Shown: positions 4,213 through 63,086, counted from the stretch's first letter. The stretch is 64,000 bases of DNA from an uncultured Pirellulales bacterium (GCA_964568985.1 CAZMSP010000001.1:11179-75178), one strand, 5' to 3'. Notes: a model not told the origin generated them from the sequence alone. Program-made: numbers and translations.

Positions 4213-4289
4213 AAGGTTCTTTTTTGAACGCAACATTATCTGATACTATGCTGGATTCCGCCTCTGGCGGATAAACCTCGATAGAACTG

Positions 4290-5525: not shown

Positions 5526-5810
5526 ACACAACCATATTTTCTTTCTCTCGCCATTCAACACAACTAAACTCCCTTTCATCTTCACCAAGCTATTGTTTAA
5601 TTATTATACCACAAAAAGCCTAAAGAATTCAAGTAAAAAAGATGCTTGACTGGCAATAATAGATGCTGGATACTGAATACTCGATGCTTGATGTTATGTT
5701 TAGTCCGGTAAAAAAGGGAGAAACATCTGGATATCGAAGGGAAATTTAGCTTGTTAGGTTAGATTATTCGCTCAGCTCAGGATGACAAGCATCGAGAAGC
5801 GAGAAACGAG

Positions 5811-7238
5811 ATGAAAGAAAGTTGTGGTCTTTTCGGTATATTTGGCGACCCGGAAGCTGTTGAAAAGACTTACTTCGGCTTACATAGTCTGCAACACCGC
5901 GGGCAGGAATCAGCAGGAATCGCCACCAGCGACGGTGAATTTATCCAGTGCTATACAGGTATGGGCACGGTAAGCAGGGTCTTCCGCAGCGGCTCAAACA
6001 TCCTTCAGAAGCTGCGTAATCCGATAGCGATCGGTCATGTGCGGTATTCGACAACCGGTGCCAGTAAAGCGGTGAACAGTCAGCCGCTCTTAGCAGAATA
6101 CTCCCGCGGGCAGGTTGCAGTAGCACATAACGGCAACCTTATAAATGCTGCGCTTATGCGTGACGAATACGAGGCCTATGGCAGCATATTCAAATCGACA
6201 TGCGATACGGAAGTTATTATTCACCTGCTTGCCAAGCCGACACACACCAATGATCCCGACCCAGTGGCGCATCTATTGAACCATCTGCAGGGGGCATATT
6301 GTCTTTTGTTTTTGTTTGACGACCACATTGAGGCGGCCCGCGACCCTTACGGTTTCAGGCCTTTGTGCATTGGCCAAACAGAAAACGGCAGCTATGTTTT
6401 CGCCAGCGAGAACTGCGCCTTCGACATTATAAACGTAAAGTTCATTCGTGAGGTTGAACCTGGCGAAATCATTCGGCTGGATGAGAAGGGTCTATCCAGC
6501 AGATTTTTTGTTCAGCCGGGTACTGTTACGCCGGCCCATTGCATCTTCGAGCACATCTATTTCGCCAAGCAAAATAGCACAATCTTCGGCGAAAACGTGC
6601 ATGAGTTTAGAAAAAAGCTTGGCAGACAACTGGCAATAGAACATCCTGTTGATGCAGATGTCGTAATACCCGTTCCGGACTCAGGTACCTCAGCGGCAAT
6701 CGGCTACGCAGAGCAGAGCAAAATACCATTCGATATGGGAATGGTTAGAAGCCATTACATAGGCAGAACATTTATCTCGCCGGACCAGAAATTAAGAGAG
6801 TTGCAGGTCAAACTCAAACTGGCAATGGTAAAAGAGGTCGTCGTCGGAAAACGCGTTGTAGTTGTAGATGATTCCATAGTTCGCGGCACAACTACCAGAG
6901 GCAAGATCAGAACGTTACGCCAGGCAGGCGCAAAAGAAATCCATATGCGGGTGAGCTGTCCGCCGCTGCGGTTTCCCTGCTTTTATGGCGTGGATTTTCC
7001 CACTAAAGAAGAACTGCTGGCGAATAATCGCAATCTGGAGCAAATCAGAGATTTTCTTGAGGTCGATAGTGTGGGCTACCTGTCACTTGAAGGAATGCTA
7101 TCCTGCGCAACGCTTGCGAAAGATCACTATTGCACTGCCTGCTGGACAGGTAAATACCCTGTCCAGCCTGATTGCACAGTCAATAAGTTTGCTATGGAAA
7201 GATACCAGATGCAGATGTTTGACGAAACCGATACTTGA
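5811..7238 (+). CDS. purF: amidophosphoribosyltransferase
   Basis: N-terminal CGLFGIFG Ntn-amidotransferase motif. PRTase motif VVVVDDSIVRGTT. C-terminal Cys ligands. 475 aa. Confidence 0.95.
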   Translation: MKESCGLFGIFGDPEAVEKTYFGLHSLQHRGQESAGIATSDGEFIQCYTGMGTVSRVFRSGSNILQKLRNPIAIGHVRYSTTGASKAVNSQPLLAEYSRGQVAVAHNGNLINAALMRDEYEAYGSIFKSTCDTEVIIHLLAKPTHTNDPDPVAHLLNHLQGAYCLLFLFDDHIEAARDPYGFRPLCIGQTENGSYVFASENCAFDIINVKFIREVEPGEIIRLDEKGLSSRFFVQPGTVTPAHCIFEHIYFAKQNSTIFGENVHEFRKKLGRQLAIEHPVDADVVIPVPDSGTSAAIGYAEQSKIPFDMGMVRSHYIGRTFISPDQKLRELQVKLKLAMVKEVVVGKRVVVVDDSIVRGTTTRGKIRTLRQAGAKEIHMRVSCPPLRFPCFYGVDFPTKEELLANNRNLEQIRDFLEVDSVGYLSLEGMLSCATLAKDHYCTACWTGKYPVQPDCTVNKFAMERYQMQMFDETDT

Positions 7239-7249
7239 TATGAGAACAA

Positions 7250-16972: not shown

Positions 16973-17032
16973 ATCTTATCTCGCTTCTCGATATTTGAGG
17001 CTCGACGAGAGTCCAGTATCGAGTATCAAGCA

Positions 17033-17722
17033 TCAGACAGCTTCAACATTCAAAATGTCGATTGCATCCGGATTTATCGTATTAAGCTGGATTCTTAACG
17101 AAGCTTTTGTACTATTCGATACGCCGCTGGTATATTCGGCCCTTATAGCAAACAGGTATTTATCCGCGTCAAGTGCGTTAGTTAAATAGCTGTAAAATCT
17201 CCGTCCCTCATAATCCATCGTTGCAATAGGGCTTTCATAGTCGATTTGACCCGTTCCACCATCATAATAAATCCTGAAATACTTTGGCCCGGACTTTTGT
17301 CCGACAGGGCAATAATACCAGAGCAGCTGTACCTTATCGCTGTCCACCTGTCTGGCATACCGGCTGAAAATCTTATTTGGCTGCGGCTTTATCAGGTTGC
17401 CATCGGCATCTATTGAGACTTTAATCGCGGCAGATAATGTATGTTCCTGGTACCCGCATCTATTGACCCGACGAACAACATAGAAATATGTCGAGCTGTT
17501 ATCATGCGCAAGATAGCTCGGCGGCGAGATTGTGTCGGCATTTAAGTCGGCCACCGCCAATAGATTATCAAAATCTATTCTTTCCATACTGGGCCCGCGA
17601 TGAAGCACTGAGCAGCCGGCAATGCGCATCCAGAACCAGCCCAAACTAAGCACAGTTCCGAGCTTGAAGGCATTGGCTGTCATGCCGGAGAATAAAGCAT
17701 CTTTTTGCCACTTGGATTCCAT
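17033..17722 (-). CDS. virion protein with GTGQIDY motif domain
   Basis: 229 aa. RIYYDGGTGQIDYESPIA is paralogous to IYFDAGTGQIDYDAPLN in ORF 20825-21601. ATGA stop/start overlap with the upstream gene at 17720-17724. Confidence 0.5.
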   Translation of the reverse strand: MESKWQKDALFSGMTANAFKLGTVLSLGWFWMRIAGCSVLHRGPSMERIDFDNLLAVADLNADTISPPSYLAHDNSSTYFYVVRRVNRCGYQEHTLSAAIKVSIDADGNLIKPQPNKIFSRYARQVDSDKVQLLWYYCPVGQKSGPKYFRIYYDGGTGQIDYESPIATMDYEGRRFYSYLTNALDADKYLFAIRAEYTSGVSNSTKASLRIQLNTINPDAIDILNVEAV

Positions 17723-23906: not shown

Positions 23907-23923
23907 CTTCTAATTCTCCTTTC

Positions 23924-23990
23924 GATTAGTGATTGGTTAAATGGTAACCGGTTAAATTGTTACTGATTACCGATTACCAGTTACCATAAT
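23924..23990. repeat. palindromic word array (GATTNGT / GTTACCA words) centred on TAACCGGTTA
   Basis: Fills the scaffold-capsid spacer. Related words recur at 49127-49293. Confidence 0.65.
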
Positions 23991-27530: not shown

Positions 27531-27690
27531 CTCGATTCTCGATCCCCGATTCTCGTCAAGTATCGAGCATCCAGCATCGCTTGTCCGCCGAAGCTTTAGC
27601 GAAGGGGGAAGCATCGAGTATCCAGTATCCAGCTTTATCCGCCGAAGGTGGAATCCAGTATCCAGCATCGAGAATCAAGCATCGAGGTCA
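27531..27690. repeat. heptamer word arrays (CTCGATN facing NATCNAG) plus TTATCCGCC hairpin
   Basis: ctcgatt ctcgatc cccgatt ctcgtca | agtatcg agcatcc agcatcg ... aatccag tatccag catcgag aatcaag catcgag. Confidence 0.75.
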
Positions 27691-36682: not shown

Positions 36683-36718
36683 ATTTCTTAATTCTAAATT
36701 CTCAATTCTAAATTCTTA
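36683..36718. repeat. ATTCTNA heptamer array spanning the GNAT stop codon
   Basis: atttctta attctaa attctca attctaa attctta. Confidence 0.7.
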
Positions 36719-37446
36719 CTGAGCCATATGTAATAGACCGGCCTGTCGGTCAGTTTGCTCAGTATGTATCTTGTCCTTTCTGGGCCCGGCGGCATCATTC
36801 TACGTTTGCCGTAGCTTTGCAGAAAGCGTCTTATTTCAAGCTCGATAAATTCAGATTGTTCTTTTGGGAGCTTGTCAAGTTTTCGCTGTACATACTCGGC
36901 ATCGATGAGTTGATGTCCTTCTATGCCGGCGAGGTTGAACGCCTCGATGAGTCGTGAGCATCTTGCGGGAGTTTTTGCATTGTATGGCTTCATTCCGGCT
37001 TTTTCAAAGAACGGATTTATCAGTCCCATCACCGCCATCGCCTCGATGATGGGGACATTGAGCAGGGGCATTGTCTCGCTGACTAATCGAGTGGCCAGGC
37101 CGAGCGAGCGGAATCTCGGCTCAACGATAACCCTGCTTATTCTGCGGATATTTTTATTGATAAGCGCCAGCTGAGTGCTTCTATCCAGGCCGACGAATAA
37201 ATCGCCGGTAGCAATATTGCGAAGCTCAAGCGCAGGAGTCGGCATTGTATAAGCGATAACACCGATAGTTTTTATGCCTGCTCGCTGAGCCAGCACAGAA
37301 TCGCCCCTAAGCGCAAAGATGACGGCAAACGGCCCCAGCCGAGAGTCACGGTAGTGGTAATGTGACAGCGATTCGTAATCCTCGATGTTGCCCGGGACAA
37401 CCTGCAGTCTTTTACATATTGAGCAGCTTTTTCGTCGTACGTCCAT
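36694..37446 (-). CDS. GNAT-like acetyltransferase-fold protein
   Basis: Motif A-like ISRVIVEPRFRSLGLATRLV (R-x-x-G-x-A). 250 aa. Fold assignment is tentative. Confidence 0.5.
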   Translation of the reverse strand: MDVRRKSCSICKRLQVVPGNIEDYESLSHYHYRDSRLGPFAVIFALRGDSVLAQRAGIKTIGVIAYTMPTPALELRNIATGDLFVGLDRSTQLALINKNIRRISRVIVEPRFRSLGLATRLVSETMPLLNVPIIEAMAVMGLINPFFEKAGMKPYNAKTPARCSRLIEAFNLAGIEGHQLIDAEYVQRKLDKLPKEQSEFIELEIRRFLQSYGKRRMMPPGPERTRYILSKLTDRPVYYIWLSKNLELRI

Positions 37447-37497
37447 CGTCTATCGTCCATCGTCCATCGTCTGTCTTCTGACCTCTGACTTCTTATA
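37431..37497. repeat. ATCGTCN heptamer array spanning the ATPase stop and GNAT start
   Basis: ttcgtcg tacgtcc atcgtct atcgtcc atcgtcc atcgtct gtcttct gacctct gacttct. Confidence 0.75.
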
Positions 37498-38124
37498 GAT
37501 AACCTGCGTCTCGCCTGACAGCTCTTGTACGACCAGAACATCAGGTATCAGGTCGAGAAGTATGTCATCGTGGCTTGCCGCCAAGACAAATGTCACGCCT
37601 TTTCGTTTTGCAAATTTGTGTATATTGTGCGAAATCACAGCAGCGGTAATGCGGTCGAGGTTTGAGCAAAACTCATCTGCGAAAATAAATTTTTTACCCT
37701 CTGCAAGTGCCATCGCTATGCGGAACCGGTATTGTTGGCCTTCGCTGAGATTGGCCGGCTGATTGAGAATGCGGAAGACGTCGTTGAGACCTGCTGTGCT
37801 GAGTGTTCTAAGGCAGGAGAGAAAGTCACCATCAATACAATCGATGAGGGTTTTGTCTCTCGGAAGTTTTATTCGAGCGAGGTTCACTCTGTCTGATGCA
37901 GGGATTGATTTTTCCAGCTCACCCAACAGTACGCTTTTACCTGCACCCGATGGGCCGGTGATATAAACGATGTCACCATCGTTGATTTGAAGTCGGCAGT
38001 TAAAATTGATATGATTATTCTTGAGCCGGTCCACTGTCAGGCCGAACATCCTGCAAACCTGAGCGACCTTGTCGCTAATCCGTCCATTCCATTGAAAGCT
38101 TTTTGATATACTGTATGTCGGCAT
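37450..38124 (-). CDS. soluble ABC-type ATPase (no permease partner)
   Basis: Walker A GPSGAGKS, ABC signature LSEGQQ, Walker B FIFADEF. ATG 38124, with the ORF open to TTG 38148. Confidence 0.8.
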   Translation of the reverse strand: MPTYSISKSFQWNGRISDKVAQVCRMFGLTVDRLKNNHINFNCRLQINDGDIVYITGPSGAGKSVLLGELEKSIPASDRVNLARIKLPRDKTLIDCIDGDFLSCLRTLSTAGLNDVFRILNQPANLSEGQQYRFRIAMALAEGKKFIFADEFCSNLDRITAAVISHNIHKFAKRKGVTFVLAASHDDILLDLIPDVLVVQELSGETQVIYKKSEVRRQTMDDGR

Positions 38125-44767: not shown

Positions 44768-44889
44768 CTGCTCGCTCATAATTTTGCCGATATTTTTGAA
44801 AAACGATACAATAGTTTGCAGTTCCATCTTGCTTTTGATATAATAAGACTTTGGAGCCGAGTGCTCGTTTATCTCTGCGAGGATTTAGT

Positions 44890-45387
44890 ATGCAATGTCA
44901 GATTTGTAAAAAAAATGATGCGACTATTCATCTAACTGAGATTACCGACGGCAATCGAGAAGAAATGCACATTTGCGAGCAGTGTGCTGTCGAGCAGGGA
45001 ATAGCTGTCAAGAGTCATATTCCTATAAATGAGCTGCTCGGTGGCTTGCTTGCTGCCCAGCCATCAGACGATGATTTATCTGGCCAGCCGGGCCAGCAGG
45101 TTCAATGCCCATGCTGTGGCATAACGTTAGCTCAATTTCGCAAAGAGGCGGTCTTAGGATGCCCCTACGATTATGAGGTTTTTGAGAAATCGCTGCTACC
45201 ACTTATCAAGAAAGCACACAGTGGCAAGACAACCCACAGTGGCAAGCTCCCCTCAAAAACTCCGAAGGATACAAAAAAGCAGGTAGAACTTTTCAACCTT
45301 CGTAAACAGCTCGAAGCTGCTGTGCAAAGCGAGGACTACGAACTGGCAGCCAAATTGCGGGACAAAATAAACAAAATGGAATCTTGA
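44890..45387 (+). CDS. mcsA: McsA-like zinc-finger / UVR-motif protein
   Basis: Four CxxC pairs (CQIC, CEQC, CPCC ...). C-terminal UVR motif EDYELAAKLRDKI. Precedes mcsB. Confidence 0.75.
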   Translation: MQCQICKKNDATIHLTEITDGNREEMHICEQCAVEQGIAVKSHIPINELLGGLLAAQPSDDDLSGQPGQQVQCPCCGITLAQFRKEAVLGCPYDYEVFEKSLLPLIKKAHSGKTTHSGKLPSKTPKDTKKQVELFNLRKQLEAAVQSEDYELAAKLRDKINKMES

Positions 45388-45482
45388 TACTTGATTCTCC
45401 GCCGATAGGCATCCTGTGGAGATACTCGGCGAGCATCGAGGTTTATCCGCCGCAGGCGGAATCCAGCATTGAGAGACGAGAG
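45384..45482. repeat. intercistronic repeat cassette starting on the mcsA stop codon
   Basis: TGATACTTGATTCTC (45385-45399, identical to 55537-55551), then a TTATCCGCC hairpin, then NATCNAG words ending in gagagacgagagATG. Confidence 0.75.
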
Positions 45483-46595
45483 ATGAAGTTAACCGATATA
45501 AGTAATGATATAAACGAGTGGTTTGGCGGCTCCGGGCCGATGTCGGATATTGTTATATCCTCACGGATTCGCTTGGCCAGAAACATCGCTGGCTATAAAT
45601 TCCTCAGTCACTGCTCAACTTCTGAAAAGTCCGAAATTCTCAATAAGCTAAAAGATGTTTTGATGTCGCTTGACCTTGGCGACAAAGTATTTTATATCAG
45701 CGTGGACAAGGCCCCAACCTTAAATCGTCATTTGCTCGTGGAAAGGCACCTTATCAGCCATAACCACGCATTTGGCAAAGGCCCGCGAGGTGCTGTTATC
45801 GCTCAGCGGGAATTCTTCACTGCTATGATTAATGAAGAGGACCACCTGAGGTTGCAGGTGTTAAAGGCCGGTTGTCAACTCTTCCAATGTCTCGAGCAGA
45901 TAAACAATATCGATGATACAGTAGAGCAAAAGGTCGACTACGCCTTTAGTCCTCGTTATGGATATTTAACGGCCTGTCCCACAAACCTCGGTACCGCAAT
46001 TCGGGTCTCGGTAATGTTGCACTTACCGGCCCTTAAGATGACAGGCCAGATAGAAAAGTTCCTTCGTGCCACAAGGGATATGAGCTTGGCGGTACGCGGC
46101 CTGTTCGGCGAAGGCACCGAGGCTGCAAGCGATTTTTATCAGCTCTCAAACCAGGTAACGCTTGGAATTTCAGAGAAGGATATCGTCTCCCAATTTGAAA
46201 ACTCCATTATCCCTGAAATAGTCGAATATGAAAATGCTGCCAGAAAACGGCTGCTCTCGGAGGATGCTGACCTTCTCAACGACAAAATCTCTCGCGCGAT
46301 GGCACTGTTACGAGGCGCCCATTTGATAAGTTCGCAGGAGGCATTATACTTATTGAGTCACTTACGGCTGGGCTTAAATATGCACGAACATATGGGGGCC
46401 TCAACTCCTGCGATAGACCGGCTCTCCCGGCTCAGCGATGCAGATGGCAAAGGTAGTCTTTCTATCGCCACTATCAATCGGCTGTTTTTGTTGACTTTGC
46501 CGGCGCATCTGCAGTTAAATTATGGAAAGCCGCTCGATTCCACGCACAGAGATGCACTTCGCGCACAAATCATCCGCTCCGCACTAAATGGTTAG
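45483..46595 (+). CDS. mcsB: protein arginine kinase (McsB, phosphagen-kinase fold)
   Basis: RIRLARNI, EEDHLRLQ, CPTNLGT and NQVTLG motifs. ATG 45483. The ORF-track extension to 45384 is repeat-encoded. Confidence 0.85.
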   Translation: MKLTDISNDINEWFGGSGPMSDIVISSRIRLARNIAGYKFLSHCSTSEKSEILNKLKDVLMSLDLGDKVFYISVDKAPTLNRHLLVERHLISHNHAFGKGPRGAVIAQREFFTAMINEEDHLRLQVLKAGCQLFQCLEQINNIDDTVEQKVDYAFSPRYGYLTACPTNLGTAIRVSVMLHLPALKMTGQIEKFLRATRDMSLAVRGLFGEGTEAASDFYQLSNQVTLGISEKDIVSQFENSIIPEIVEYENAARKRLLSEDADLLNDKISRAMALLRGAHLISSQEALYLLSHLRLGLNMHEHMGASTPAIDRLSRLSDADGKGSLSIATINRLFLLTLPAHLQLNYGKPLDSTHRDALRAQIIRSALNG

Positions 46596-46689
46596 GAGAT
46601 ATTTTTCACCGCTGAGAACGCCGGGGTCACAGAGAATTTTGCCACCAAGACCTTAAGAAGTGTAAAGTGCCTAAAGTTGCGGATTATTT

Positions 46690-46765
46690 TCTCGCTTTAG
46701 TACCTGATAACCTGATTCCTGATATCCTATGCCTTGATTTCCTAATAACCTGCCTGATACCTAAG
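46690..46765. repeat. CCTGATN heptamer/octamer word array
   Basis: tacctga taacctga ttcctga tatccta tgccttga tttccta ataacctg cctgatacc. Confidence 0.7.
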
Positions 46766-46813
46766 ATAAAGTCGTGCCGCTCCTCCTATGAACGACTTGC
46801 AAATCTAACATCT

Positions 46814-46841
46814 ATTGTAGGCAAATGTCCCCAAATGTCAA
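46814..46841 (-). promoter_or_regulatory. orphan copy of the promoter-bearing element: TTGACA-16-TACAAT with no downstream minus-strand gene
   Basis: On the minus strand, -35 is at 46836-46841 and -10 at 46814-46819. The element 46776-46862 is paralogous to 27455-27538. Confidence 0.45.
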
Positions 46842-47173
46842 GCAAAAAACAATGCTCGATTCCACTCATAGAGATGTGGCCCCGCACCTACTTTTAAGAT
46901 TTAGCTCCCGAATATATATTTCAGTCCAGATTGTAAAAAAACCTTCATTTTACTTTGATTGTGTATTCTCAAAGTAGCTGCGGGGCTGCCAAAATGGCAC
47001 TATTAACAAGAAGATAGAAGACGGAAAACAGAAGTCAGAAGCCATAACTTCCTGAAATAAAAGATGTTAGTTGCTCAAAACAGATTGTGCTTGACTTTTG
47101 GCACGGCTTTTGCGAATAAATAACCACAGATTAAATATAAATAAAATCTCTGTGGCAAAAAAAGGAGATGATT

Positions 47174-49126
47174 ATGGCTAAAATCATTGGCATAGATTTG
47201 GGAACGACAAATTCCGTGGTCGCCGTTATGGAAGGTTCGGCGCCGAAGGTATTGATAAATTCTTCCGGCTCCCGGCTGACGCCTTCGGTGGTCGGCTTCA
47301 CGGACAAGGGCGAGCGGCTCGTCGGACAGATTGCGCGCCATCAGCAGGTAACAAATCCCGAAAACACCGTATTTTCAATCAAGCGTTTTATGGGCAGACG
47401 CCATAGCGAAGTTTCATCGGAAGAAAAAATTGTTCCTTACAAAATTACCGGCGGACCGGAGGAGCTGGTCAAAGTCCGGGTCCGCGGGAAAGAATACACC
47501 CCGCCGGAAATCTCAGCTATGGTCCTGCAGGATTTGAAAAAAACCGCTGAGGATTATCTGGGCGAAAAAGTAACCGATGCCGTTATTACCGTCCCAGCAT
47601 ATTTTAACGACTCCCAGCGACAGGCCACAAAAGACGCAGGCAAAATCGCAGGCCTCAATGTCCGCAGGATTATTAACGAACCGACTGCCGCGGCCCTTGC
47701 CTACGGCGTCGAGAAGAAAAAGGACCAGAAAGTGGCCGTCTTTGACTTCGGCGGCGGCACATTCGATATCTCCATCCTTGATATCGGCGGCTTTGGCGAG
47801 GAAGGCGGTGTTCTTGAAGTCCTCAGCACAAACGGTGACACCCATCTCGGCGGCGATGACCTTGATGCCGTCTTGATAAACCATATCGCCGATGAGTTCA
47901 AACAGAAAGAGGGCATCGACCTGCGCGAAGACCCGATGGCACATCAACGGCTCAAAGAGGCTGCTGAAAAGGCAAAGTGCGAACTGAGCTCGCAGGTCGA
48001 AGCGACCATTAATCTGCCCTTTATCACCGCTGACGCAAAAGGCCCGAAGCACCTGCAGATGACCGTCACCAGAAGCAAGTTCGAATCGCTGGTTGAGCAC
48101 GTTTTTGAACGTCTAAAACAACCGTGCTACAAAGCAATGGAGGATGCAAAGCTGGAACTTAAGGACATCACCGAAGTCCTGCTGGTAGGCGGCTCGACAA
48201 GGACTCCAAAGGTTCAGGAAATAGTCAAAGAAATCTTCGGTAAAGAACCGAACAAGAGCATCAATCCTGATGAGGTAGTTGCATTGGGCGCCGCCATTCA
48301 GGGCGCTGTCCTGGCCGGCGATGCGGGCGTAAAGGATATTCTGCTGCTGGACGTAACGCCTCTTTCCCTTGGTGTCGAGACGCTCGGCGGTGTTATGACA
48401 AAACTGATTGAGCGCAACACAACCATCCCTACCAGCAAGAAGGAGATTTTCTCGACCGCTGCGGACAATCAGACCACCGTTGATATCCATGTGCTTCAGG
48501 GCGAGCGTGAATTTGCGCGGGACAACCGAACGCTCGGCAGATTCCAGCTTGCTGATATTCCGCCGGCCCCGCGAGGTATTCCGCAGATTGAGGTTGCATT
48601 TGACATTGATGCCAACGGCATTTTGAACGTCTCAGCAAAAGACCTCGGCACCGGCAAGCAACAATCAATTGAAATTAAATCCAGTTCAGGCCTCAGTGAC
48701 GATGAGGTTAAAAAGATGACAAAGGACGCTGAGGCACACGCCGCAGATGACAAAAAGAAAAGAGAGGTGGTGGACCTGAAGAACCAGGCCGACCAGCTGA
48801 TTTACTCCACTGAAAAAACTCTCAAAGAGCATGGCGATAAGGTCTCTGGTGAAATCCGGGGAAAAATCGAAAGCGCCACTAACAACCTCAAAAATGCTAT
48901 AAAAGGCGATAACGCCGACGCAATAAAAAAAGCCATCGAAAACCTCGGCACTGCCAGCCAGGAATTGGGTAAGGTTCTCTATGAAGAAGCCGCCAAAAAG
49001 CAGGCCGCTTCAGCAGCTTCGGGCACAGCTGAGCAAAAACCACCTCCGCCACCCGAAGGCGAGGTTAAAAGAAAAGACGGTAACGATGATGTAATCGACG
49101 CTGAATTCGAGGCAAAAGACAAATAA
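47174..49126 (+). CDS. dnaK: molecular chaperone DnaK (Hsp70)
   Basis: [33 protein letters not shown] 7 nt upstream of ATG 47174. An in-frame ATG also occurs at 47168. Confidence 0.97.
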
Positions 49127-49293
49127 CAACTAATGAGTGGTTATTGGTAACTGGTTACAGGATATTAAAAATCAAATATCGAAATGTAAAATTAAGGAAG
49201 TCGTTGCCGCTTTGCGGCAACTCCATAATTTTGATTTTTAATCTTTGATTTTTGCATTCTTTTTACCAGTTACTATTTAACTAATAACTATCT
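49127..49293. repeat. nested palindromic spacer between convergent dnaK and mnmE
   Basis: Outer arms use GGTAAC/GTTACC words and middle arms use AAATCAAA/TTTGATTT words. The core hairpin is at 49203-49221. Confidence 0.75.
49203..49221. terminator. GC core hairpin GTTGCCGC-TTT-GCGGCAAC (candidate bidirectional terminator)
   Basis: 8-bp perfect stem with A/T-rich flanks on both sides, placed between convergent genes. Confidence 0.5.
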
Positions 49294-50745
49294 TTATTTT
49301 CCTATACAGAATTGGCTGAATATCCTGTCCAGAATCTCTTCGTCGATATGCTGCTGCTCGATATCGCTCATCGCCTTGTACGCTGCCCGCAGCATCATTG
49401 CAGTTACCTCATCATTGCTGGCTTTCAACTCAATCATGGCTTCGCTGACGTTTTCAATCGCATCTGTGACGGCCTGTCTGTGCCGGGCCATAAGAGCAAC
49501 CCCCGACGCTTGCTCAGAAAGCCCCTCGCTACCTGTACCAAGTACCAGCTCGATTAATTTCTTATCAATTGTATTTCGCAACTGTTCCACACCAACGCTG
49601 GTTACTGCAGAAGTTGGTAAAAACTTGGCGGCAAATAACTTATTTAACTCGGCAAGTCGATTAGCTAACATCTCCTCTGAGACGAGGTCAGATTTTGTTG
49701 CAACCAGTATCGCCGGTACAGACCCAAGACCACAGACCAAAGACCATAGACTAATCTCATCGGCCCACATTCCAAGCTCTGGAGCATTATATCTTGTGTC
49801 TTGTGTCTTGAGTCTGGGGTCTTTTGAAACATCCACGCAAAATACAACCACAGAGCTGTTGCGCAGCGCCTCGACTGCTGCTTGCTGCGCCAATTCATCA
49901 AGAATATTCTCTGCTGTAGCCAACAATCCTGCACAGTCGAACAGCACACATCTACAATGCGTCAGAGATAGTAGTCCCGTCAGGACATCCCTTGTGGTTT
50001 TGTGCCTGTCTGATATGATACTTCTTTCTTCGCCGAGCAACTTATTCAACAGACTGCTTTTGCCGGCATTGGTTGCTCCTGCTATGCCCACCGCTGGCAA
50101 ATCGATTAATGATTCATTCCTGATGCTGCCAGAAAGCAACTGCTCAAGCTCCATCTTTATCCAGGTAAGTTTTTCAACCGCCTGCGGTCGAGTTATAAAT
50201 TCGATATCTTCGCTGCTGAAATCCAGACCCGCTTCGATTAAGCTGAGACAATCCATCAGCTCTGACTGTATTTTTGCTGTAGCTTCAGCTAATCGCCCGC
50301 TCAGAAGTTTCTCAGCAGCAGCTAATTGAAAGGTATTGGAGCTTACCACGACTTCATTCACTGCCTCCGCCTGTGTTAAATCAATCTTGCCGGCTAGGTA
50401 TGCGCGCGCCGTGAACTCACCGGGCCCTGCCATTCGAAGGCCTTGGCTAAACATCTTGCCCATTAAGGTTTCTACAACAGCAGCGTTAGTATAGGTGTGA
50501 AATTCGGCAACGTCCTCACCGGTATAAGAGCGCGGGCCAAAAGACAGGTACAGTTTCGCTTCAACCTTAAGCTCGTCATCTACCGTTATACTTCCGGTAA
50601 TCAGACCGTTTGTTTTGATAGAGATAGGCGGCCTGAAAATCTGCTGACAGATTTCGACCATCTTAGGGCCGGTTATGCGAATAATCACCCTCTCCTGTGA
50701 ACTCGGAGAGCTAACCGCCACAATAGTATCGCTCAGGTCATACAT
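49294..50745 (-). CDS. mnmE: tRNA modification GTPase MnmE with a repeat-encoded ~36-aa insertion
   Basis: G-domain GATNAGKSSLLN, TTRD and TKSDL. C-terminal FCIGK. Insertion at 49718-49825. Confidence 0.9.
   Translation of the reverse strand: MYDLSDTIVAVSSPSSQERVIIRITGPKMVEICQQIFRPPISIKTNGLITGSITVDDELKVEAKLYLSFGPRSYTGEDVAEFHTYTNAAVVETLMGKMFSQGLRMAGPGEFTARAYLAGKIDLTQAEAVNEVVVSSNTFQLAAAEKLLSGRLAEATAKIQSELMDCLSLIEAGLDFSSEDIEFITRPQAVEKLTWIKMELEQLLSGSIRNESLIDLPAVGIAGATNAGKSSLLNKLLGEERSIISDRHKTTRDVLTGLLSLTHCRCVLFDCAGLLATAENILDELAQQAAVEALRNSSVVVFCVDVSKDPRLKTQDTRYNAPELGMWADEISLWSLVCGLGSVPAILVATKSDLVSEEMLANRLAELNKLFAAKFLPTSAVTSVGVEQLRNTIDKKLIELVLGTGSEGLSEQASGVALMARHRQAVTDAIENVSEAMIELKASNDEVTAMMLRAAYKAMSDIEQQHIDEEILDRIFSQFCIGK
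49718..49825. repeat. inverted heptamer arrays (AGACCNN)x5 ... (GTCTTGN)x5 lying in frame inside mnmE
   Basis: agaccca agaccac agaccaa agaccat agactaa ... atcttgt gtcttgt gtcttga gtctggg gtctttt. 108 nt, equal to 36 codons. Confidence 0.8.
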
Positions 50746-50752
50746 AAGAGAT

Positions 50753-50827
50753 TACAGAAGCCAGAAATCAGAAGCCAGATGTCAGAAGTCAGATTTTTCT
50801 GTCGTCTGTCCTCTGACTTCTGTCCTC
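50753..50827. repeat. inverted heptamer arrays (NCAGAAG)x6 / (TCTGNCN)x4 between yidC and mnmE
   Basis: acagaag ccagaaa tcagaag ccagatg tcagaag tcagatt ttt tctgtcg tctgtcc tctgact tctgtcc. The right arm runs into the yidC stop codon at 50826-50828. Confidence 0.8.
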
Positions 50828-52886
50828 AAATCTTATAGAAGGGTTTGGGCTTTTTCTTTTTGACTTTTCCGCCGGTCTTACTCGTTACGGCAACCAGGCC
50901 TTTCGATTCTGTCTGTTCTTTTTCACGAATGTGTTTGCGAATGACATACTGCTCAAAAACACCAGCAAAGGTACTGGCCATAATATACAGATTCACCCCT
51001 GACGGCGCCTTGTATAACATCAGCGGAAACATCAACGGCAGCATTATCATCATCATTTTCTGCTGCTGAGCCATTTGGGGACTTGCCGATGCTGACGCCT
51101 GCGACGGCATAAGTTTTTGCTGCAGAAAGAAAGCCACGCCCATCATAATAGGCAGCAGGTTCAGCGACTCTATCCTCCAGCCAAGCAGCGGCAGTGTTAT
51201 CGTTGAAAATCTGACCAGGGCGTCGGGCACCGAAAGGTCGGTAATCCAGAACGGCAAAAACGCTGCTCCACGCAAATCAATACTGGCATACACGGCGCTC
51301 CACAACGCAATCCAGATGGGCATCTGCACGAACATCGGTAGAAAGCCAAAAATCGGAGAAGCCCCCTGCTCTTTATAAAGAGCCATTATTTGCTTGTTCA
51401 TTTCGGCCTTGTTATTGGCGAATTTTTTCTTTATTTCCTCGGCCTTCGGACCGAGCTTACCCATCTTGCTCATCGAGACTTGGCTCTTTTTGGTAATCGG
51501 ATGCATAATCAGACGCATCAAAAACACCAGTATGATAATGACCACACCGTAGTTGCCGATTATGCCGTACATCCATTTCATTATTGCTAGTATCCCAAAG
51601 GCCAGTGGGCTTATAATGCTCGCCGGGCAACAACAGGCCATAAAATCTATCGTTTGAACAAAGCCAAGCGTTCGATAGAGATCGTTTTTATCGAAGAGAC
51701 TTTTATCCTTGGGTCCCACATACACATGGAAGTTATATATTTTTGTGCTGTTCGCCTGGTCCGCCGGAGCCAGTTTGCTTGTGGCAATTTTCAAATCCAA
51801 CCCTACCGTTTCATCGCCGCTGTCGGCCTTATCGTCCCCATCGGGATTATAGAACCGACCTGTCCTCTCTGTCACCCAGTCGCAGTACTCTTTGCCCTCA
51901 TCCGGAACGGGCACCACTATGGCCGCAAAATACTTGTTGACCGCAGCGGCCCAGAGAAAGTTGTCCCCACTTTTTATCAACCGCCTGTCATCAGGGGTCT
52001 TTGCCTTGAGTAGTTTTTTCCTGTCAAGTCTTACACTGGTAATCCGGCCCTGCGAATCTCTAAAGCCGGCAACGACCTTCCTCATATCGGCCCTGAAAGC
52101 CTCTCTGCCGAGTCCTAATGGACCGGCCATATTGAATTGATACTTTAGCTCTCTGTCGGCAAGATTTTCAACCGCTACGCTGCAATCCAAAAGATAGCTG
52201 TCAGGGCTGACTTTGTATGTTTTTAATAGTTTCACTACCGGCTTACCGGCTGACGTTTTGATAATCGCTTCGAACCGAGCCGTTTGAGAGCCGTCCTCTG
52301 CCGTTTCTTTGCCGAGACTCCTGAATTGCAAACCCTGTAGCGGCAATTGCAGCTTCTCCTGAACAAACACAAACTCTCTGTTTGCCATCGACAAAACTTC
52401 ATCACCACCGGCCAGCTCCACAGGAGAAAGAATCACCAACGGCTGAGGATTTTTATAATCACGGTCATCAAATCCGCTAAAGGTAGCTCTCTTTATCGCT
52501 GCTCCTTTGGTGCTCAATTCCAACTCGTACATAAACCAGCTCTTTGGGTCGATTGAGCCGAGTTTAACAGTCTCAGCTGAACCTCCATAGGCCTCGAAAG
52601 TTGTAACAGCAGCCATTTCCTGATGGCTTTTGCCTGTCCTGGGTGAACCTGTCCCGAGCGTGGTCGAGGGAGTCGAAGGGCTGCCAGCAGGAGATTCATC
52701 GGCCTGCGGATTTTCGTTAGCCGTTGTTTGCTGCAAAAGAATACAGGGTTTTCCGACACCTTCTTTGTCATTCCCGCGCAACCTGTCCTGAGCAAAGTCG
52801 AAGGAGCGGGAATCTATACCGGATTCAATAACAAGCCACCCGCAGAAAACAATAAATCCAGCTATAAATAAAGTTAAATATCGCAT
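50826..52886 (-). CDS. yidC: membrane protein insertase YidC
   Basis: N-terminal TM, a large periplasmic domain and a C-terminal conserved 5-TM core with a basic tail (KVKKKKPKPFYKI). ATG 52886. The ORF is open to 52919 through a repeat. Confidence 0.85.
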   Translation of the reverse strand: MRYLTLFIAGFIVFCGWLVIESGIDSRSFDFAQDRLRGNDKEGVGKPCILLQQTTANENPQADESPAGSPSTPSTTLGTGSPRTGKSHQEMAAVTTFEAYGGSAETVKLGSIDPKSWFMYELELSTKGAAIKRATFSGFDDRDYKNPQPLVILSPVELAGGDEVLSMANREFVFVQEKLQLPLQGLQFRSLGKETAEDGSQTARFEAIIKTSAGKPVVKLLKTYKVSPDSYLLDCSVAVENLADRELKYQFNMAGPLGLGREAFRADMRKVVAGFRDSQGRITSVRLDRKKLLKAKTPDDRRLIKSGDNFLWAAAVNKYFAAIVVPVPDEGKEYCDWVTERTGRFYNPDGDDKADSGDETVGLDLKIATSKLAPADQANSTKIYNFHVYVGPKDKSLFDKNDLYRTLGFVQTIDFMACCCPASIISPLAFGILAIMKWMYGIIGNYGVVIIILVFLMRLIMHPITKKSQVSMSKMGKLGPKAEEIKKKFANNKAEMNKQIMALYKEQGASPIFGFLPMFVQMPIWIALWSAVYASIDLRGAAFLPFWITDLSVPDALVRFSTITLPLLGWRIESLNLLPIMMGVAFFLQQKLMPSQASASASPQMAQQQKMMMIMLPLMFPLMLYKAPSGVNLYIMASTFAGVFEQYVIRKHIREKEQTESKGLVAVTSKTGGKVKKKKPKPFYKI

Positions 52887-53020
52887 CTTATCTATCGTCC
52901 TTCGTCCCTCATCTCTCATGACTGTCCTCTCGTGTATTGCTTGTCCGCCGTCCCCACTCTTGTCTTCGACAAGAAGACGTCGGGAGCGAAGGTGGAAGCA
53001 TCGAGTCGCGAGAAACGATT

Positions 53021-53797
53021 TTATCTCCCATCGAGCAGTCTGTCGGCGTGGAAGGTATCCAGTTGGTCGATTGCTTTTATCTTTTTCATAGTAGTTTCAA
53101 TATCGTACTGAAGCCGGACAAAGTGCACCTCATTTTCATCTACATACACATAGCTTGCCCGATTGTTTTTGTCTCTCGGTTGTCCTACAGAGCCGATATT
53201 AATAATTGCTTTCTCGCCATCGATAATCGGATAGAAATTGCCAAGCTCATCCGGCGGATAGAAATCTGGCTCATTGAGAAATACACCAGGCATATGCGTA
53301 TGGCCGACAAAGCATATATGCTTGACCCGCTCGAAGAGCAGCCGAACCTTTAGCGGATTGCTGTAAACATCATCAGGAAAGATATATTCATTAATCGGCT
53401 TTCTGGGTGAAGCATGAACAAAATCCATTATTGCTGTAGTTGGCCCCAGCCTGCTTTTGAGTGTCCGTCGCATCGGCAGCTCGCCCAAGAAGCGCCAGCG
53501 CCTGTCACAGCCTGGCTTATATTCCTCTGTTTCCAGAACCTCACGTGTCCAAAAACTTGCCTGCTCCGCGGCGTAGTTGAAATTTGTCGGCTCATAGAAG
53601 ACCGCATAATCGTGATTGCCCAGAATGCACCACCTGGCTTTCTCTATAATCAAGTCAAGACACTCCCTTGGGTTTGGACCGTAACCGACCACATCGCCAA
53701 GACAATAAATTATCTCTATGCCTCTTTTTTCAATATCAGCCAGAACCGTGGTTAAGGCCTCGAGGTTGGAATGTATATCGCTCAGAACCGCAAACAT
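53021..53797 (-). CDS. calcineurin-like metallophosphoesterase
   Basis: Motifs LSDIHSN, GDVVGYG, GNHD and GHTH. ATG 53797. The upstream ORF extension is repeat-encoded. Confidence 0.8.
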   Translation of the reverse strand: MFAVLSDIHSNLEALTTVLADIEKRGIEIIYCLGDVVGYGPNPRECLDLIIEKARWCILGNHDYAVFYEPTNFNYAAEQASFWTREVLETEEYKPGCDRRWRFLGELPMRRTLKSRLGPTTAIMDFVHASPRKPINEYIFPDDVYSNPLKVRLLFERVKHICFVGHTHMPGVFLNEPDFYPPDELGNFYPIIDGEKAIINIGSVGQPRDKNNRASYVYVDENEVHFVRLQYDIETTMKKIKAIDQLDTFHADRLLDGR

Positions 53798-54212
53798 ACG
53801 CCTTCTCAAATTAATACGCCTATGGCGTGTAAATAAAACGATCCTTATATTATGTGGAGCCCATGGGCTCTGCCCGTCGTACCTCTCCATCCTCCGTGGC
53901 AGTAGTCCTGCTACTGCGGAGGACGGTCGTCTCCGGCGGAACCCGCCGAAGCACATCCGCCTACGCTAAAGCTACGGTGGATACCCTTTTCGCATTCATC
54001 CACGGGCAAAGCCCGTGGCTTTCTGCGAAGGCGGGTAAAAACCACCTTATAGCAGAAATGTTGCAAAAATGCCAGAATATTTATCAGCTTTTGGAAAAGC
54101 GTGTTTTTGCCCTGTTTAGCTCAATTGCCAAAAAAAAGACAATTGGCTTTAGCCGGTAATATGGGTATAATACCTCACACACAATATAAAAAACACAATA
54201 CAAGATACAGAG

Positions 54213-54974
54213 ATGATGGATATGACTCTTCTTGAAACTCGTGGGCTGGTAAAGAAGTATTCCGGCAGGGCTGTTGTCAACGAAATATCTATTGCAATTG
54301 GTCAGTGCAGTATAGTCGGACTTCTGGGCAGAAATGGAGCTGGCAAAACCACCACCTTTAGAATGATTATGGGAATGGTTACCCCTAACAGCGGCTCGGT
54401 CATCTTTGAAGGCCATGATATTACAAAGCTGCCAATGTACAAAAGAGCACGCCTCGGCATCGGCTATCTTTCACAGGAGCCGAGCATCTTTCAACGCCTC
54501 AGTGTCCGAGATAACTTATATGCTATTCTGGAAACAATGTCGTACACCCGAGCCGAGCGCAACCGCAAGGCAGCTATGCTCATTGAGCGTTTTGCGCTTG
54601 GAGAGGTTGCCGATAGCCAGGGCAGGTTTCTTTCCGGCGGTGAGCGAAGAAAACTTGAAATCGCTCGTGCTATGGTAACAGACCCCTCATTGGTTCTTTT
54701 GGATGAGCCCTTCAGCGGCGTTGACCCTATTGCTGTTGAGGATTTGCAGCACGAAATCCGCCGGCTCGTTGCTTCCGGCGTCAGTATTCTTGTTACCGAC
54801 CATAACGTCGAAAGAACGCTCGAGGTGGTTGATTACGCCTATATTATCGACCACGGCAAGGTGATTGGAGCCGGTACACCGCCAGAAATTGTCCGCAACG
54901 AGACCGTCAGAAAGCACTATCTCGGCAGCATCTTCACCGGCACAGAATTCGACGATAATAAACGCAAAGCGTAG
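54213..54974 (+). CDS. lptB: LPS export ABC transporter ATPase
   Basis: GRNGAGKTTTF, GIGYLSQEPSIFQRLSVRDNL, LSGGERRKLEIARA, LLDEPFSGVDP. Confidence 0.85.
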   Translation: MMDMTLLETRGLVKKYSGRAVVNEISIAIGQCSIVGLLGRNGAGKTTTFRMIMGMVTPNSGSVIFEGHDITKLPMYKRARLGIGYLSQEPSIFQRLSVRDNLYAILETMSYTRAERNRKAAMLIERFALGEVADSQGRFLSGGERRKLEIARAMVTDPSLVLLDEPFSGVDPIAVEDLQHEIRRLVASGVSILVTDHNVERTLEVVDYAYIIDHGKVIGAGTPPEIVRNETVRKHYLGSIFTGTEFDDNKRKA

Positions 54975-55005
54975 ATAGTGCGTAAGGCCGCAAAATAAAA
55001 GAAAT

Positions 55006-55539
55006 ATGAAAATAACAGATATTGACAAATGTCGAATTACGCATTATCCGGCTGAGGTTTTGGTTGGGCACGCCCAGCCGGTCGAAAAAATCGATGATAA
55101 TATACGCCGGCTTGTCGAGAAGATGACCGACATTATGCTGAAAAACAAAGGCATCGGCCTGGCTGCTCCGCAGGCGGGCGTGTCGTTGCGACTGTTTATT
55201 ATATCGCTCAATGCAACAAGAGAGGCCGTCAAAGTATATATCAATCCCATCGTTACTCCGGACGGACAGCTTACGGAATTTGACGAAGGTTGCCTGTCTG
55301 TTCCGGGTATTTACACAAAAATTCGTAGATACAAAAAGTGCAAAGTTACCGCTACCGACCTTGATGGCAACGAGTTTACAGAAGAGGCCGAAGGACTGTA
55401 CGCCAGGGCACTTCAGCACGAATACGACCACATCGAGGGAATGACCATCGTCAATCGAATGGGTCAGGTAGCCAAAATCGCACACCGAAAACAGCTTAAA
55501 AAACTTACAGAAGAGCACGAGCAATCGCGTGAGTCCTGA
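55006..55539 (+). CDS. def: peptide deformylase
   Basis: GIGLAAPQ, EGCLSVPG and HEYDHIEG motifs. Confidence 0.95.
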   Translation: MKITDIDKCRITHYPAEVLVGHAQPVEKIDDNIRRLVEKMTDIMLKNKGIGLAAPQAGVSLRLFIISLNATREAVKVYINPIVTPDGQLTEFDEGCLSVPGIYTKIRRYKKCKVTATDLDGNEFTEEAEGLYARALQHEYDHIEGMTIVNRMGQVAKIAHRKQLKKLTEEHEQSRES

Positions 55540-55579
55540 TACTTGATTCTCGACGAGCATCCGGCAGCGAGAAACGAAT
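55537..55579. repeat. def-fmt intercistronic repeat cassette
   Basis: TGATACTTGATTCTC (stop codon included) + GACGAGCATCCGGC + AGCGAGAAACGAAT, followed directly by ATG. It shares 15-mers with 45385-45399 and 59717-59731. Confidence 0.8.
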
Positions 55580-59369: not shown

Positions 59370-60836
59370 ATGCAGGGTACATTCACGGATGATAAGCTCC
59401 GCTCTGCCGAAAACCAGATAAGCGCTATTAACGAAGCTCTCGCCAGGAATATAGGCCCACAAAAGTTTCGTATCTGGTTTAATAACTCAACCAGGCTTGC
59501 CCTTACCGGCAGCTATCTAAAGGTTGGTGTGCCAAACCTTTTCATTGCAAGCTGGATTGAAAATCACTTTGCAAACGAAATCAGTAAGGCGGTCAAAGAA
59601 GTTACCGGAGCCCATCGAAAGATTACATTCGCTATCGACCCCGAGCTTTCAGGCAGCCAGAGACGGACGCAGCTGGACTCACAGGCACGACGCGCAGCTC
59701 GTTCATCTATCCCCGGTTCTCGACGAGCATCGAGCATCCAGCATAGAGCATCCGGAAAGCTGAAATATAATCTGGATACATTTGTTGTCGGCCGCTCAAA
59801 TGAGCTTGCTTACAATGCTGCAAAAGCAGTTGTAAATGAGCAAAGAAGCCCTTTCAATCCTCTCTTTATTCACGGAGGATATGGCGTCGGCAAAACACAC
59901 CTGCTGCAGGGAATTTGCAAGGCAGTTTCCAAAAAGCGACCTCAGGCCAATTGGCTTTATCTGTCAGCCGAGGATTTCGTTAACCAGTTTGTATTGGCCT
60001 TGAAAATAAAAAAGCTCGAGCACTTTCGACAAAAAATGAGACAAACAGACTTGTTAGCTATCGACGATATCCACTTTTTGGCAAGCAAGCCATCAACGCA
60101 GGAAGAATTTCTGCATACCTTCAACACCATCAATCTTGCAGGCAAACAGGTCGTGCTGGCCTCCGACGCACATCCAAAGATGATAGGGCAACTGTCCGAA
60201 AAGCTAATTAACCGCTTCATCTCTGGCATGGTCGTCAAAATCAATAGCCCTGATTTCCAGACCCGCTGTGAAATCTGCCAGCAATACGCTGCTGCTATGA
60301 TGGGAGCAAACTTTGGCGCAGCCCATAAGAGGCTGGCCCAAAAGCAAATCCCCGAAAATGTAATAAGATATGTTGCCGAAAATCTGCGCTCCAACGTACG
60401 GGAGCTGGAAGGGGCAATGATGAAATTAGTTGCTTATTCGGCTCTGCAAAATGAGAAGGTTAATCTGTCTATGGCCCAGGAGGTTCTGGCTGAACACCTT
60501 GCCAGGACTGACCCCATTGTGCACATATCGGATATCGAATCAGCCGTCGCTACATATTTCGGCTTAACACCGGCCAATATACATTCATCCAAGAAGGATA
60601 GAACCATAGCCCTCGCCCGGCATTTTAGTATGTATCTGACGAGAAAACACACAAAGATGTCGTTCTCTGAGATTGGCAGATTTATGGGCAATAAAAATCA
60701 CGCCACCGTACTTCTGGCCTGCAGAAAGGTTGAAGACTTTATCAACAGAAATGTGGAGCTTCACTGGCTTTCGCCTGTCGGCAATAAAATCGCAAAGGCA
60801 AAAACCATTCTCGCCGAGCTTGAAGCAAGCATATAA
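59370..60836 (+). CDS. dnaA: chromosomal replication initiator DnaA
   Basis: Walker A GGYGVGKTHLL, Walker B DDIHFL and a C-terminal DNA-binding HTH (ALARHFSMYLTRKHT..FSEIGRFMGNKNHATV). The domain II linker carries a heptamer array. Confidence 0.95.
   Translation: MQGTFTDDKLRSAENQISAINEALARNIGPQKFRIWFNNSTRLALTGSYLKVGVPNLFIASWIENHFANEISKAVKEVTGAHRKITFAIDPELSGSQRRTQLDSQARRAARSSIPGSRRASSIQHRASGKLKYNLDTFVVGRSNELAYNAAKAVVNEQRSPFNPLFIHGGYGVGKTHLLQGICKAVSKKRPQANWLYLSAEDFVNQFVLALKIKKLEHFRQKMRQTDLLAIDDIHFLASKPSTQEEFLHTFNTINLAGKQVVLASDAHPKMIGQLSEKLINRFISGMVVKINSPDFQTRCEICQQYAAAMMGANFGAAHKRLAQKQIPENVIRYVAENLRSNVRELEGAMMKLVAYSALQNEKVNLSMAQEVLAEHLARTDPIVHISDIESAVATYFGLTPANIHSSKKDRTIALARHFSMYLTRKHTKMSFSEIGRFMGNKNHATVLLACRKVEDFINRNVELHWLSPVGNKIAKAKTILAELEASI
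59715..59756. repeat. heptamer array (ATNNAGC words) in frame within the dnaA linker
   Basis: ggttctc gacgagc atcgagc atccagc atagagc atccgga. The 15-mer TTCTCGACGAGCATC (59717-59731) is identical to 55547-55561. Confidence 0.8.
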
Positions 60837-62973: not shown

Positions 62974-63086
62974 GCAGGGTCCTTCTAAATTACCTTTATC
63001 CTGTTTTTTTCAAAACTAGGAACGCCGGATAACAAATTTCAATTATGCATCCAGGGCACTGCGGGATTTATCCGCCTACGGTGGAT

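Follow-up and report, generated by a model that had tools for sequence, protein, structure and literature searches.

Repeat-filled spacers between stop and start codons in an uncultured planctomycete: probable miniature copies of a PF05635 cassette family

What occupies the gap between two genes when the stop codon of the first and the second gene's start codon both border the same repeat? This question is raised by the mcsA-mcsB and def-fmt junctions of a 64,000-nt stretch of DNA (the window; CAZMSP010000001.1:11179-75178 of GCA_964568985.1) from an uncultured Pirellulales bacterium. The original prediction, made from the sequence of the window, described modular repeat cassettes running from stop to start and proposed that they act as intercistronic linkers. 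Our analysis bears out the layout and argues against the proposed role. The two spacers are best read as cassette copies packed between coding sequences, not as purpose-built linkers. They are probably miniature copies, without an open reading frame (ORF), of a palindromic cassette family that carries a gene for PF05635, the 23S-rRNA intervening-sequence protein.

The repeats lie on codon boundaries at both junctions. The exact 15-mer TGATACTTGATTCTC occurs at 45385-45399 and 55537-55551, and its TGA is a stop codon in both places, as predicted. TGA 45385-45387 ends ORF 44851-45387, an mcsA-like gene with a UVR motif, and TGA 55537-55539 ends ORF 55006-55539, which encodes peptide deformylase (def). 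The genes downstream encode an ATP:guanido phosphotransferase (mcsB) and methionyl-tRNA formyltransferase (fmt), respectively. A third exact genomic copy, on the minus strand of contig C98, is not on a stop codon. On the start side, the motif reported directly ahead of purF and fmt was found at both genes: AGCGAGAAACGA lies at 5798-5809, adjoining purF ATG 5811, and at 55566-55577, ahead of fmt ATG 55580, and CGAGAAACGA-type units reach both ATGs. Two related claims were correct in part. The third copy of GCGAGAAACGA is present, one base from the predicted 53009-53019, at 53008-53018; on the strand of the neighbouring genes it follows a TAA stop, not precedes a start, and is thus the mirror-image arm. 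The purF stop (7236-7238) does lie inside the related GATACTTGAT (7230-7239), which amounts to one and a half isolated units instead of an array and could be a relic or a chance match.

The mcsA-mcsB spacer measures 95 nt and the def-fmt spacer 40 nt (55540-55579). The latter had been said to lack a canonical GGAGG, and GGAG, GAGG and AGGA are all absent from it; none of the three occurs 5-12 nt before the start there or before position 45483. Comparison with 80 relatives places the true mcsB start at ATG 45483, not TTG 45384, and the true mcsA start at ATG 44890 (MQCQIC...). Longest-ORF calling over-extends both genes into repeat or leader sequence (44851-44890 for mcsA and 45384-45483 for mcsB).

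Both terminal motifs reduce to a single degenerate heptamer, which reads CGAGNAT one way and ATNCTCG, its reverse complement, the other. Together these readings make the two arms of a palindromic element, with the left arm after the stop and the right arm ahead of the start. The TGATACTTGATTCTC family has 13 matches at three or fewer mismatches versus 1.7 expected, and among TGA-first two-unit matches, 3 of 15 are real stops versus ~0.04 expected (Poisson p 1e-5). The identical 15-mer at two loci was rejected as significant in itself, the family comprising 41 two-unit matches over 64 possible variants. Likewise, the threefold occurrence of the GCGAGAAACGA-type 11-mer is not above chance alone (8 of 100 shuffles reach three).

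The identity of these elements is suggested by PF05635 genes elsewhere in the genome. Three of the four lie between inverted heptamer arms that extend from an upstream stop to a downstream ATG (cassettes C34, C142 and C4). The C34 cassette, built from the CGAGNAT word, extends exactly between the acetolactate synthase genes, beginning at the large-subunit TAA and stopping at the small-subunit ATG. These codons enclose, in order, the left arm CTCGATGCTGGATACTCGATGCTTGATGCTCG, the segment TAGAAGGAAAAAACCT, the PF05635 ORF beginning at a GTG, and the right arm GGCGAGCATCGAGCATCAAGAAACGAGGAACGAGA. The def-fmt spacer aligns with the C34 left arm joined to the C34 right arm, the gene being absent. 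The 14-nt inner junction GATRCTCGTAGAAG recurs without change of orientation in the gene-bearing cassette and in ORF-less copies at 12 loci from other genomes, against ~0.01 matches expected by chance. As a side observation, the C34 PF05635 ORF (L104 1483-1938) reads through its own right arm, giving the tail ...QEASIEHQETRNENETYNKRIG, and overlaps the small-subunit start in another frame.

This association extends to the relatives, uncultured Sedimentisphaerales (Phycisphaerae, Planctomycetota) among which 80 loci with mcsB were found. PF05635 is present in 2-15 copies in 28 of 31 relatives, versus one of 14 control genomes. At the 28 PF05635 loci read, arrays stood on both sides in 12 and on at least one side in 20. 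The background of both-sided arrays over all genes of the genome is 1.8% (binomial p 2e-14). The arm words at PF05635 genes (GGTAA, ATACGNN, CAGAAG, TAGTTCA, ACGAGCG, AAGACT and CGAGNAT) are the vocabulary of the ORF-less arrays. In a full cassette, a small PF05635 gene is bracketed by tandem degenerate heptamers as the 5' arm (here ATNCTYG) and by their reverse complements (CGAGNAT) as the 3' arm. The protein itself is a four-helix bundle. The def-fmt and mcsA-mcsB spacers hold no ORF and are therefore filed as ORF-less relatives, not as cassette members.

The positional bias was evaluated by a genome-wide census of 1885 genes on a home-made ORF map. Because this map gives exact stops and approximate starts, the start-side statistics are softer than the stop-side ones. 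The three-unit array criterion carries a chance share of ~22% in intergenic DNA and ~10% at boundaries. The genome contains several hundred period-7 arrays made of ~10-15 heptamer words. Tandem Repeats Finder (TRF) detected 306 period-7 arrays versus 78-118 for periods 8, 10 and 11, and the lag-7 signal is confined to intergenic DNA. With the three-unit criterion, 263 arrays were intergenic and 101 straddled a boundary, compared with ~58 and ~10 in block shuffles; coding DNA showed a small excess (264 versus ~210). Stop codons wholly within an array numbered 56 of 1758 (6-11 in shuffles, ~8), and starts within an array 30 of 1748 (9-12 in shuffles, ~10). The stop-to-start organization foreseen from the window therefore holds genome-wide, and the positional bias is real, being sharp at stops and softer at starts.

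Arrays seldom extend more than ~2 nt upstream of a stop and accumulate behind it. The first array was offset from the stop by -2..+2 in 30 cases, +3..+7 in 29, +8..+12 in 18 and -7..-3 in 12. The statement that arrays begin "exactly" on the stop is true for roughly a quarter of stop-proximal arrays. Coverage after stops was 5.5% at +3..+8, reached a maximum of 7.7% at +21..+26 and fell to 2% by +117, the intergenic mean being 3.0%. Before starts, it peaked at 5.3% ~21-26 nt upstream and was 2.9% at -3..-8, which equals the intergenic mean. The arms are also polar: the sense-strand ratio of CGAGNAT was 10:3 near starts and 1:10 near stops (Fisher p 0.0013). Arm order is fixed per word family, with GGTAANT at 15:3 near stops and GAGTCTT at 5:0 near starts.

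Such a bias could also arise if the arrays were dedicated linkers, selected at operon junctions to supply a strong stop context, an RNA hairpin and a purine-rich initiation region independent of Shine-Dalgarno pairing, thereby tuning translational coupling. Array-abutted starts mostly lack a Shine-Dalgarno sequence (12 of 46 have one versus 48% genome-wide), in a genome whose 16S 3' end is canonical. Before starts, the GAG-exposing orientations of CGAGNAT, ATACGNN and GAGTCTT prevail 26:3. The stop triplet is repeated in register in the following units 15 times versus 7.6 by permutation (p 0.003), in a minority of cases, and the def-fmt element with its TGA is kept in three species. However, arm polarity is automatic, because a cassette built as A...rcA reads alike on both strands. 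Stop triplets are no denser in post-stop arrays (0.062 per nt sense, 0.045 antisense) than in ordinary post-stop DNA (0.055 and 0.044), and coverage immediately before starts, as given above, provides no excess. A three-frame stop barrier was rejected on the same densities. Such arrays also occur in convergent and divergent spacers, in 5' leaders and inside ORFs; coverage is highest in convergent spacers (4.4%), followed by co-directional (3.1%) and divergent ones (2.4%).

RNA structure does not distinguish the named spacers either. Their arms are reverse-complement words, and def-fmt and mcsA-mcsB fold no better than shuffles (z -0.8 and -0.7), versus -3.8 for the yidC-mnmE element. Only weak stems are predicted for these two short spacers. 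Taken together, array spacers exceed shuffles in structure, 39% having z < -2 versus 20% of array-free spacers. An array-specific strand asymmetry of RNA folding was considered and dismissed; the sense strand folded better in 54 of 83 array spacers and equally often in array-free ones (83 of 118). An alternative ribosome-binding motif, ACGAA / TACGA, was also discarded; it peaks at -8..-6 in only ~30-40 genes and is the tail of ATACGNN arrays.

Comparison of orthologous junctions showed turnover. The def-fmt element was present in three of eight same-genus species read at that junction. It is orthologous, TGA included, in two other species of the genus (G001 and G005), and in G005 an extra hairpin resembling a repetitive extragenic palindromic (REP) sequence, rich in GC, is inserted in its centre. 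In the remaining same-genus species the spacer is unrelated and measures 31, 108 or 201 nt; in other genera, the junction shows TTACCAN arrays, inverted GACGATG arrays, an overlap of 4 nt or a gap of 1 nt. Across relatives, the length of the def-fmt spacer varies between -4 and 201 nt and that of the mcsA-mcsB spacer between -14 and 535 nt; the words differ at the former as well, and the latter carries at least six of them. Several genera have a two-armed CGAGNAT element in the 5' leader of mcsA, placed after a TTGACG...TGGTATAAT promoter and ahead of the ATG, so an upstream stop is not needed. The element is missing or replaced by unrelated words at the same junction in most relatives, same-genus species included. 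Taken with the distribution and density results, this makes a dedicated linker unlikely.

The same turnover bears on a regulatory alternative, in which the arrays are putative binding sites whose words are recognised on RNA or DNA by PF05635, S1-, Csp- or CsrA-type proteins that govern how the flanking genes are translated or the fate of their mRNA. The word set is conserved from genus to genus, the arrays overlap the ribosome-binding region of genes without Shine-Dalgarno sequences, and similar proposals exist for the TAACTGA repeats (PMC4679880). At orthologous junctions, however, neither the word nor its presence is conserved, and the flanking genes are functionally unrelated. We rate this explanation the least probable of those considered, well into the unlikely range.

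Several further observations were made at these loci. The mcsA genes of relatives have their own TTGACG-N17-TGGTATAAT promoter. The 535-nt mcsA-mcsB spacer of L091 contains two small ORFs that resemble, as judged by eye, a HicB/HicA antitoxin-toxin pair. The mcsB match spans 1391-1663 nt in L035, L039, L041 and L052 versus the usual ~1119 nt, which points to insertions of ~270-540 nt inside mcsB.

A neutral origin was weighed as well: the arrays might be simple repeats of the short tandemly repeated repetitive (STRR) or long simple sequence repeat (SSR) kind, born in situ by slippage from a local heptamer, drifting neutrally and unrelated to PF05635. Heptanucleotides are the commonest long SSR class in prokaryotes, according to the summary of Mrazek 2007 given in PMC4679880. 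Same-word mcsA-mcsB spacers differ by exactly 14 nt, or two units, in two pairs of relatives (L027/L028 and L040/L068), many loci have their own word, and arrays occur wherever constraint is low. Against this, the top 10 word clusters account for 69% of arrays in this genome and likewise in 99 loci of other genomes from many genera. Arm order is fixed within word families, the 14-nt inner junction is conserved between distant loci, and the two-sided association with PF05635 is strong. The shared inner junction already suggests dispersal of word families as two-armed units that keep this junction, and slippage alone seems to us an unlikely source.

Genomes with the CGAGNAT pattern itself numbered 25 of 61 in the same Genome Taxonomy Database (GTDB) family versus 8 of 300 from other parts of the phylum. 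Within the family, G363 exceeds 100 matches to the 18-nt pattern. A control pattern, the CGAGNAT array read backwards, had many matches in a few other Planctomycetota (e.g., G239, G152 and G310), so other heptamer words have expanded independently elsewhere in the phylum. In the relative G341, long CGAGNAT arrays stand at the ends of contigs C9, C47 and C56, so that short-read assemblies are broken by these repeats.

Several results weigh against reading the named spacers as PF05635 cassette copies. The PF05635 gene is absent from the def-fmt and mcsA-mcsB spacers and from these junctions in all relatives read, so to speak of loss of the ORF from gene-bearing cassettes is to infer it from the similarity of arms and junctions. 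Neither spacer folds better than its shuffles, and a clear reverse-complement partner within 150 nt was seen for only ~60 arrays above control. Neither an insertion footprint nor a target duplication was found, and PF05635 cassettes have no known mobility mechanism.

If the spacers are cassette copies, as is probable, their fit between codons could be accounted for as follows. Cassettes with ~10-15 heptamer words would have colonised non-coding gaps across this Sedimentisphaerales family of sediment planctomycetes. The intercistronic gaps would originally have been tiny, as in relatives that still have a 4-nt overlap or a 1-nt gap. Arrays would then lengthen and shorten in 7-nt steps, selection would trim intrusions into coding sequence, and units containing TGA, TAA or TAG could capture a stop in register. 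The arms would touch both stop and start because the gaps were minimal and coding intrusions were trimmed. Translation of fmt and mcsB would start without a canonical Shine-Dalgarno sequence, presumably by coupling or through the weak GAG cores of the 3' arm. The genome has an RNase III gene at C9:24952-25308, and by analogy with rRNA intervening sequences, the longer arm pairs are likely substrates of this enzyme in the transcript.

A more ambitious proposal treats PF05635 proteins and their heptamer arms as a single self-propagating system. A given protein lineage would be specific for a 7-nt word of its own, the cassettes would home to operon stop-start junctions and leave ORF-less two-armed copies, in the manner of miniature inverted-repeat transposable elements (MITEs), and RNase III would excise them from mRNA. 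We regard this as doubtful. Were it true, RNase III cutting would uncouple neighbouring cistrons, and both rRNA intervening sequences and the long-unexplained intergenic excess of heptamers in several phyla would be explained.

The stop-to-start placement is a known kind of observation, given the precedent in Beggiatoaceae. TAACTGA heptamer direct repeats occur in marine Beggiatoaceae and some Cyanobacteria and Bacteroidetes (MacGregor 2015, PMC4679880). In Beggiatoaceae they lie immediately before starts, over the expected ribosome-binding site, where Shine-Dalgarno sequences are rare; they overlap the upstream stop in 13 cases and show 7-nt indels between strains (PMC4679880). The arrays described here share the tandem 7-nt units ahead of starts, the scarcity of Shine-Dalgarno sequences, the stop overlap and copy changes in 7-nt steps. 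Unlike TAACTGA, which is one word in direct repeats with no predicted structure, they use 10-15 degenerate words, typically in two inverted arms, are biased more strongly to stops than to starts and are associated with PF05635.

In the 23S rRNA intervening sequences of Coxiella, Leptospira and others, terminal inverted repeats pair into a stem whose loop carries an S23p / PF05635 ORF, and RNase III excises the element (PMC4990558). Full cassettes resemble them in having a PF05635 ORF in the loop between inverted arms, within a transcribed region. They differ in lying between protein-coding genes instead of in 23S rRNA, and in having arms that are tandem heptamer arrays. Most copies here, the named spacers included, have lost or never had the ORF, and cleavage by RNase III is surmised by analogy. 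Among other repeats, the STRR sequences of heterocystous cyanobacteria and long SSRs are abundant intergenic tandem heptamers with several word families per genome, and the arrays resemble them in these respects, by description and not sequence by sequence. No published link of STRR sequences to PF05635 or to stop and start boundaries was found, and no literature search paired STRR with stop or start codons. REP sequences and the bacterial interspersed mosaic elements (BIMEs) they form, enterobacterial repetitive intergenic consensus (ERIC) sequences and Correia elements are dispersed imperfect palindromes in transcribed spacers, often just after stops, and can be nested and modular. In contrast to their fixed consensus, the elements studied here are tandem 7-nt arrays.

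The literature search returned no paper linking heptamer repeats to Phycisphaerae or Sedimentisphaerales, nor PF05635 to heptamer repeats. Three points are added here: a small heptamer vocabulary shared by a whole planctomycete family, the inverted-arm build and the PF05635 link; the stronger stop bias also sets these arrays apart from the published case. No long simple repeat is commoner in bacteria than the tandem heptamer, a class of unexplained origin, for which the three points together offer a concrete, testable source. The findings also bear on the translation of fmt, mcsB and dozens of other genes without Shine-Dalgarno sequences. In practical terms, the arrays mislead gene callers, as with the over-extended mcsA and mcsB starts, and break assemblies. 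The features of the window are collected in Table 1.

Table 1. Repeat features at gene junctions of the window
Feature	Position	Strand	Remarks
def-fmt left arm TGATACT TGATTCT CG	55537..55552	+	first TGA is the def stop; aligns with left arm of C34 cassette; orthologous in G001 and G005
def-fmt short centre ACGAGCATCCGGCAG	55553..55567	+	one GAGCATC unit, right-arm polarity; position of the gene in full cassettes
def-fmt right arm CGAGAAA CGAAT	55568..55579	+	ends at fmt ATG 55580; no Shine-Dalgarno; aligns with ...CAAGAAACGAGGAACGAGA-ATG of C34 cassette
mcsA-mcsB left arm TGATACT TGATTCT C	45385..45399	+	first TGA is the mcsA stop
mcsA-mcsB inner part	45400..45441	+	small palindrome CGCCGA...TCGGCG, then GAGCATCGAGG units
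REP-like GC hairpin TTTATCCGCCGCAGGCGGAATCC	45442..45464	+	nested in mcsA-mcsB element
mcsA-mcsB right arm AGCATTGAGAGACGAGAG	45465..45482	+	ends at mcsB ATG 45483
Third complete example in the window	16973..17032	-	TGATGCT TGATACT CGATACT GGACTCT, whose first unit is the TGA stop of ORF 17033-17722
Right arm ATCGAGAAGCGAGATAAGAT of the 16973..17032 element		-	ends at ATG of ORF 15140-16972; fold z -1.1
Left-arm array GATGCTGGATACTGAATACTCGATGCTTGATG	5662..5693	+	purF upstream region, divergent spacer
Right-arm array CATCGAG AAGCGAG AAACGAG	5790..5810	+	ends at purF ATG 5811
Spacer from metallophosphoesterase stop to yidC start	52920..53020	-	left arm, REP-like hairpin, right part; plus-strand GCGAGAAACGA is the left arm from the other strand
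yidC-mnmE spacer filled by CAGAAGN / NCTTCTG word	50746..50825	-	same architecture; long hairpin, fold z -3.8
Lone GATACTTGAT across purF stop	7230..7239	+	

The hairpin nested in the mcsA-mcsB element is of a separate small family. This REP-like GC hairpin has the form TTATCCGCC-N4..40-GGCGGAAT, with longer forms GCTTGTCCGCCGTAGC..., and its pattern TCCGCC..GGYGGA has 83 matches in the genome. It occurs at 45442-45464, 27630-27655, 4255-4275 and 63060-63085 and at ~80 more genomic sites, frequently nested in heptamer arrays. The heptamer arms themselves are not REPs. A REP-associated tyrosine transposase (RAYT) was rejected as the driver of the arrays, since the sole Y1 transposase (PF01797) match, at C65:3921-4193, is marginal, lying exactly at the cut-off with 23 bits. 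Heptamers as promoters (TTGATA / GATACT) were also rejected; their spacing is unfit, and a promoter scan of the two named spacers was empty. Neither an intrinsic terminator (GC hairpin with U-run) nor -35/-10 hexamers were found in the def-fmt or mcsA-mcsB spacer, and Rfam 15 gave no match at gathering score across the whole window.

Other words and settings were also seen in the window. A GGTAANT / ANTTACC array lies at 23907-23989. On the minus strand, both the TAG ending an ABC-ATPase-like ORF and the ATG opening the following one fall inside a GACGATG array within 37440-37500. A NAGAATT array at 36685-36716, also on the minus strand, includes the stop (TAG) of ORF 36694-37446 and terminates at the ATG where an ORF with a ParB_N domain begins. 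Both arrays are partly translated. The 15-mer TTCTCGACGAGCATC of the def-fmt spacer (55547-55561) recurs at 59717-59731 within ORF 59370-60836, in a period-7 array (TRF 59724-59752), so CGAGNAT units also occur in frame in coding DNA. The gene 3' of mcsB is dnaK (HSP70, 47168-49126), not clpC.

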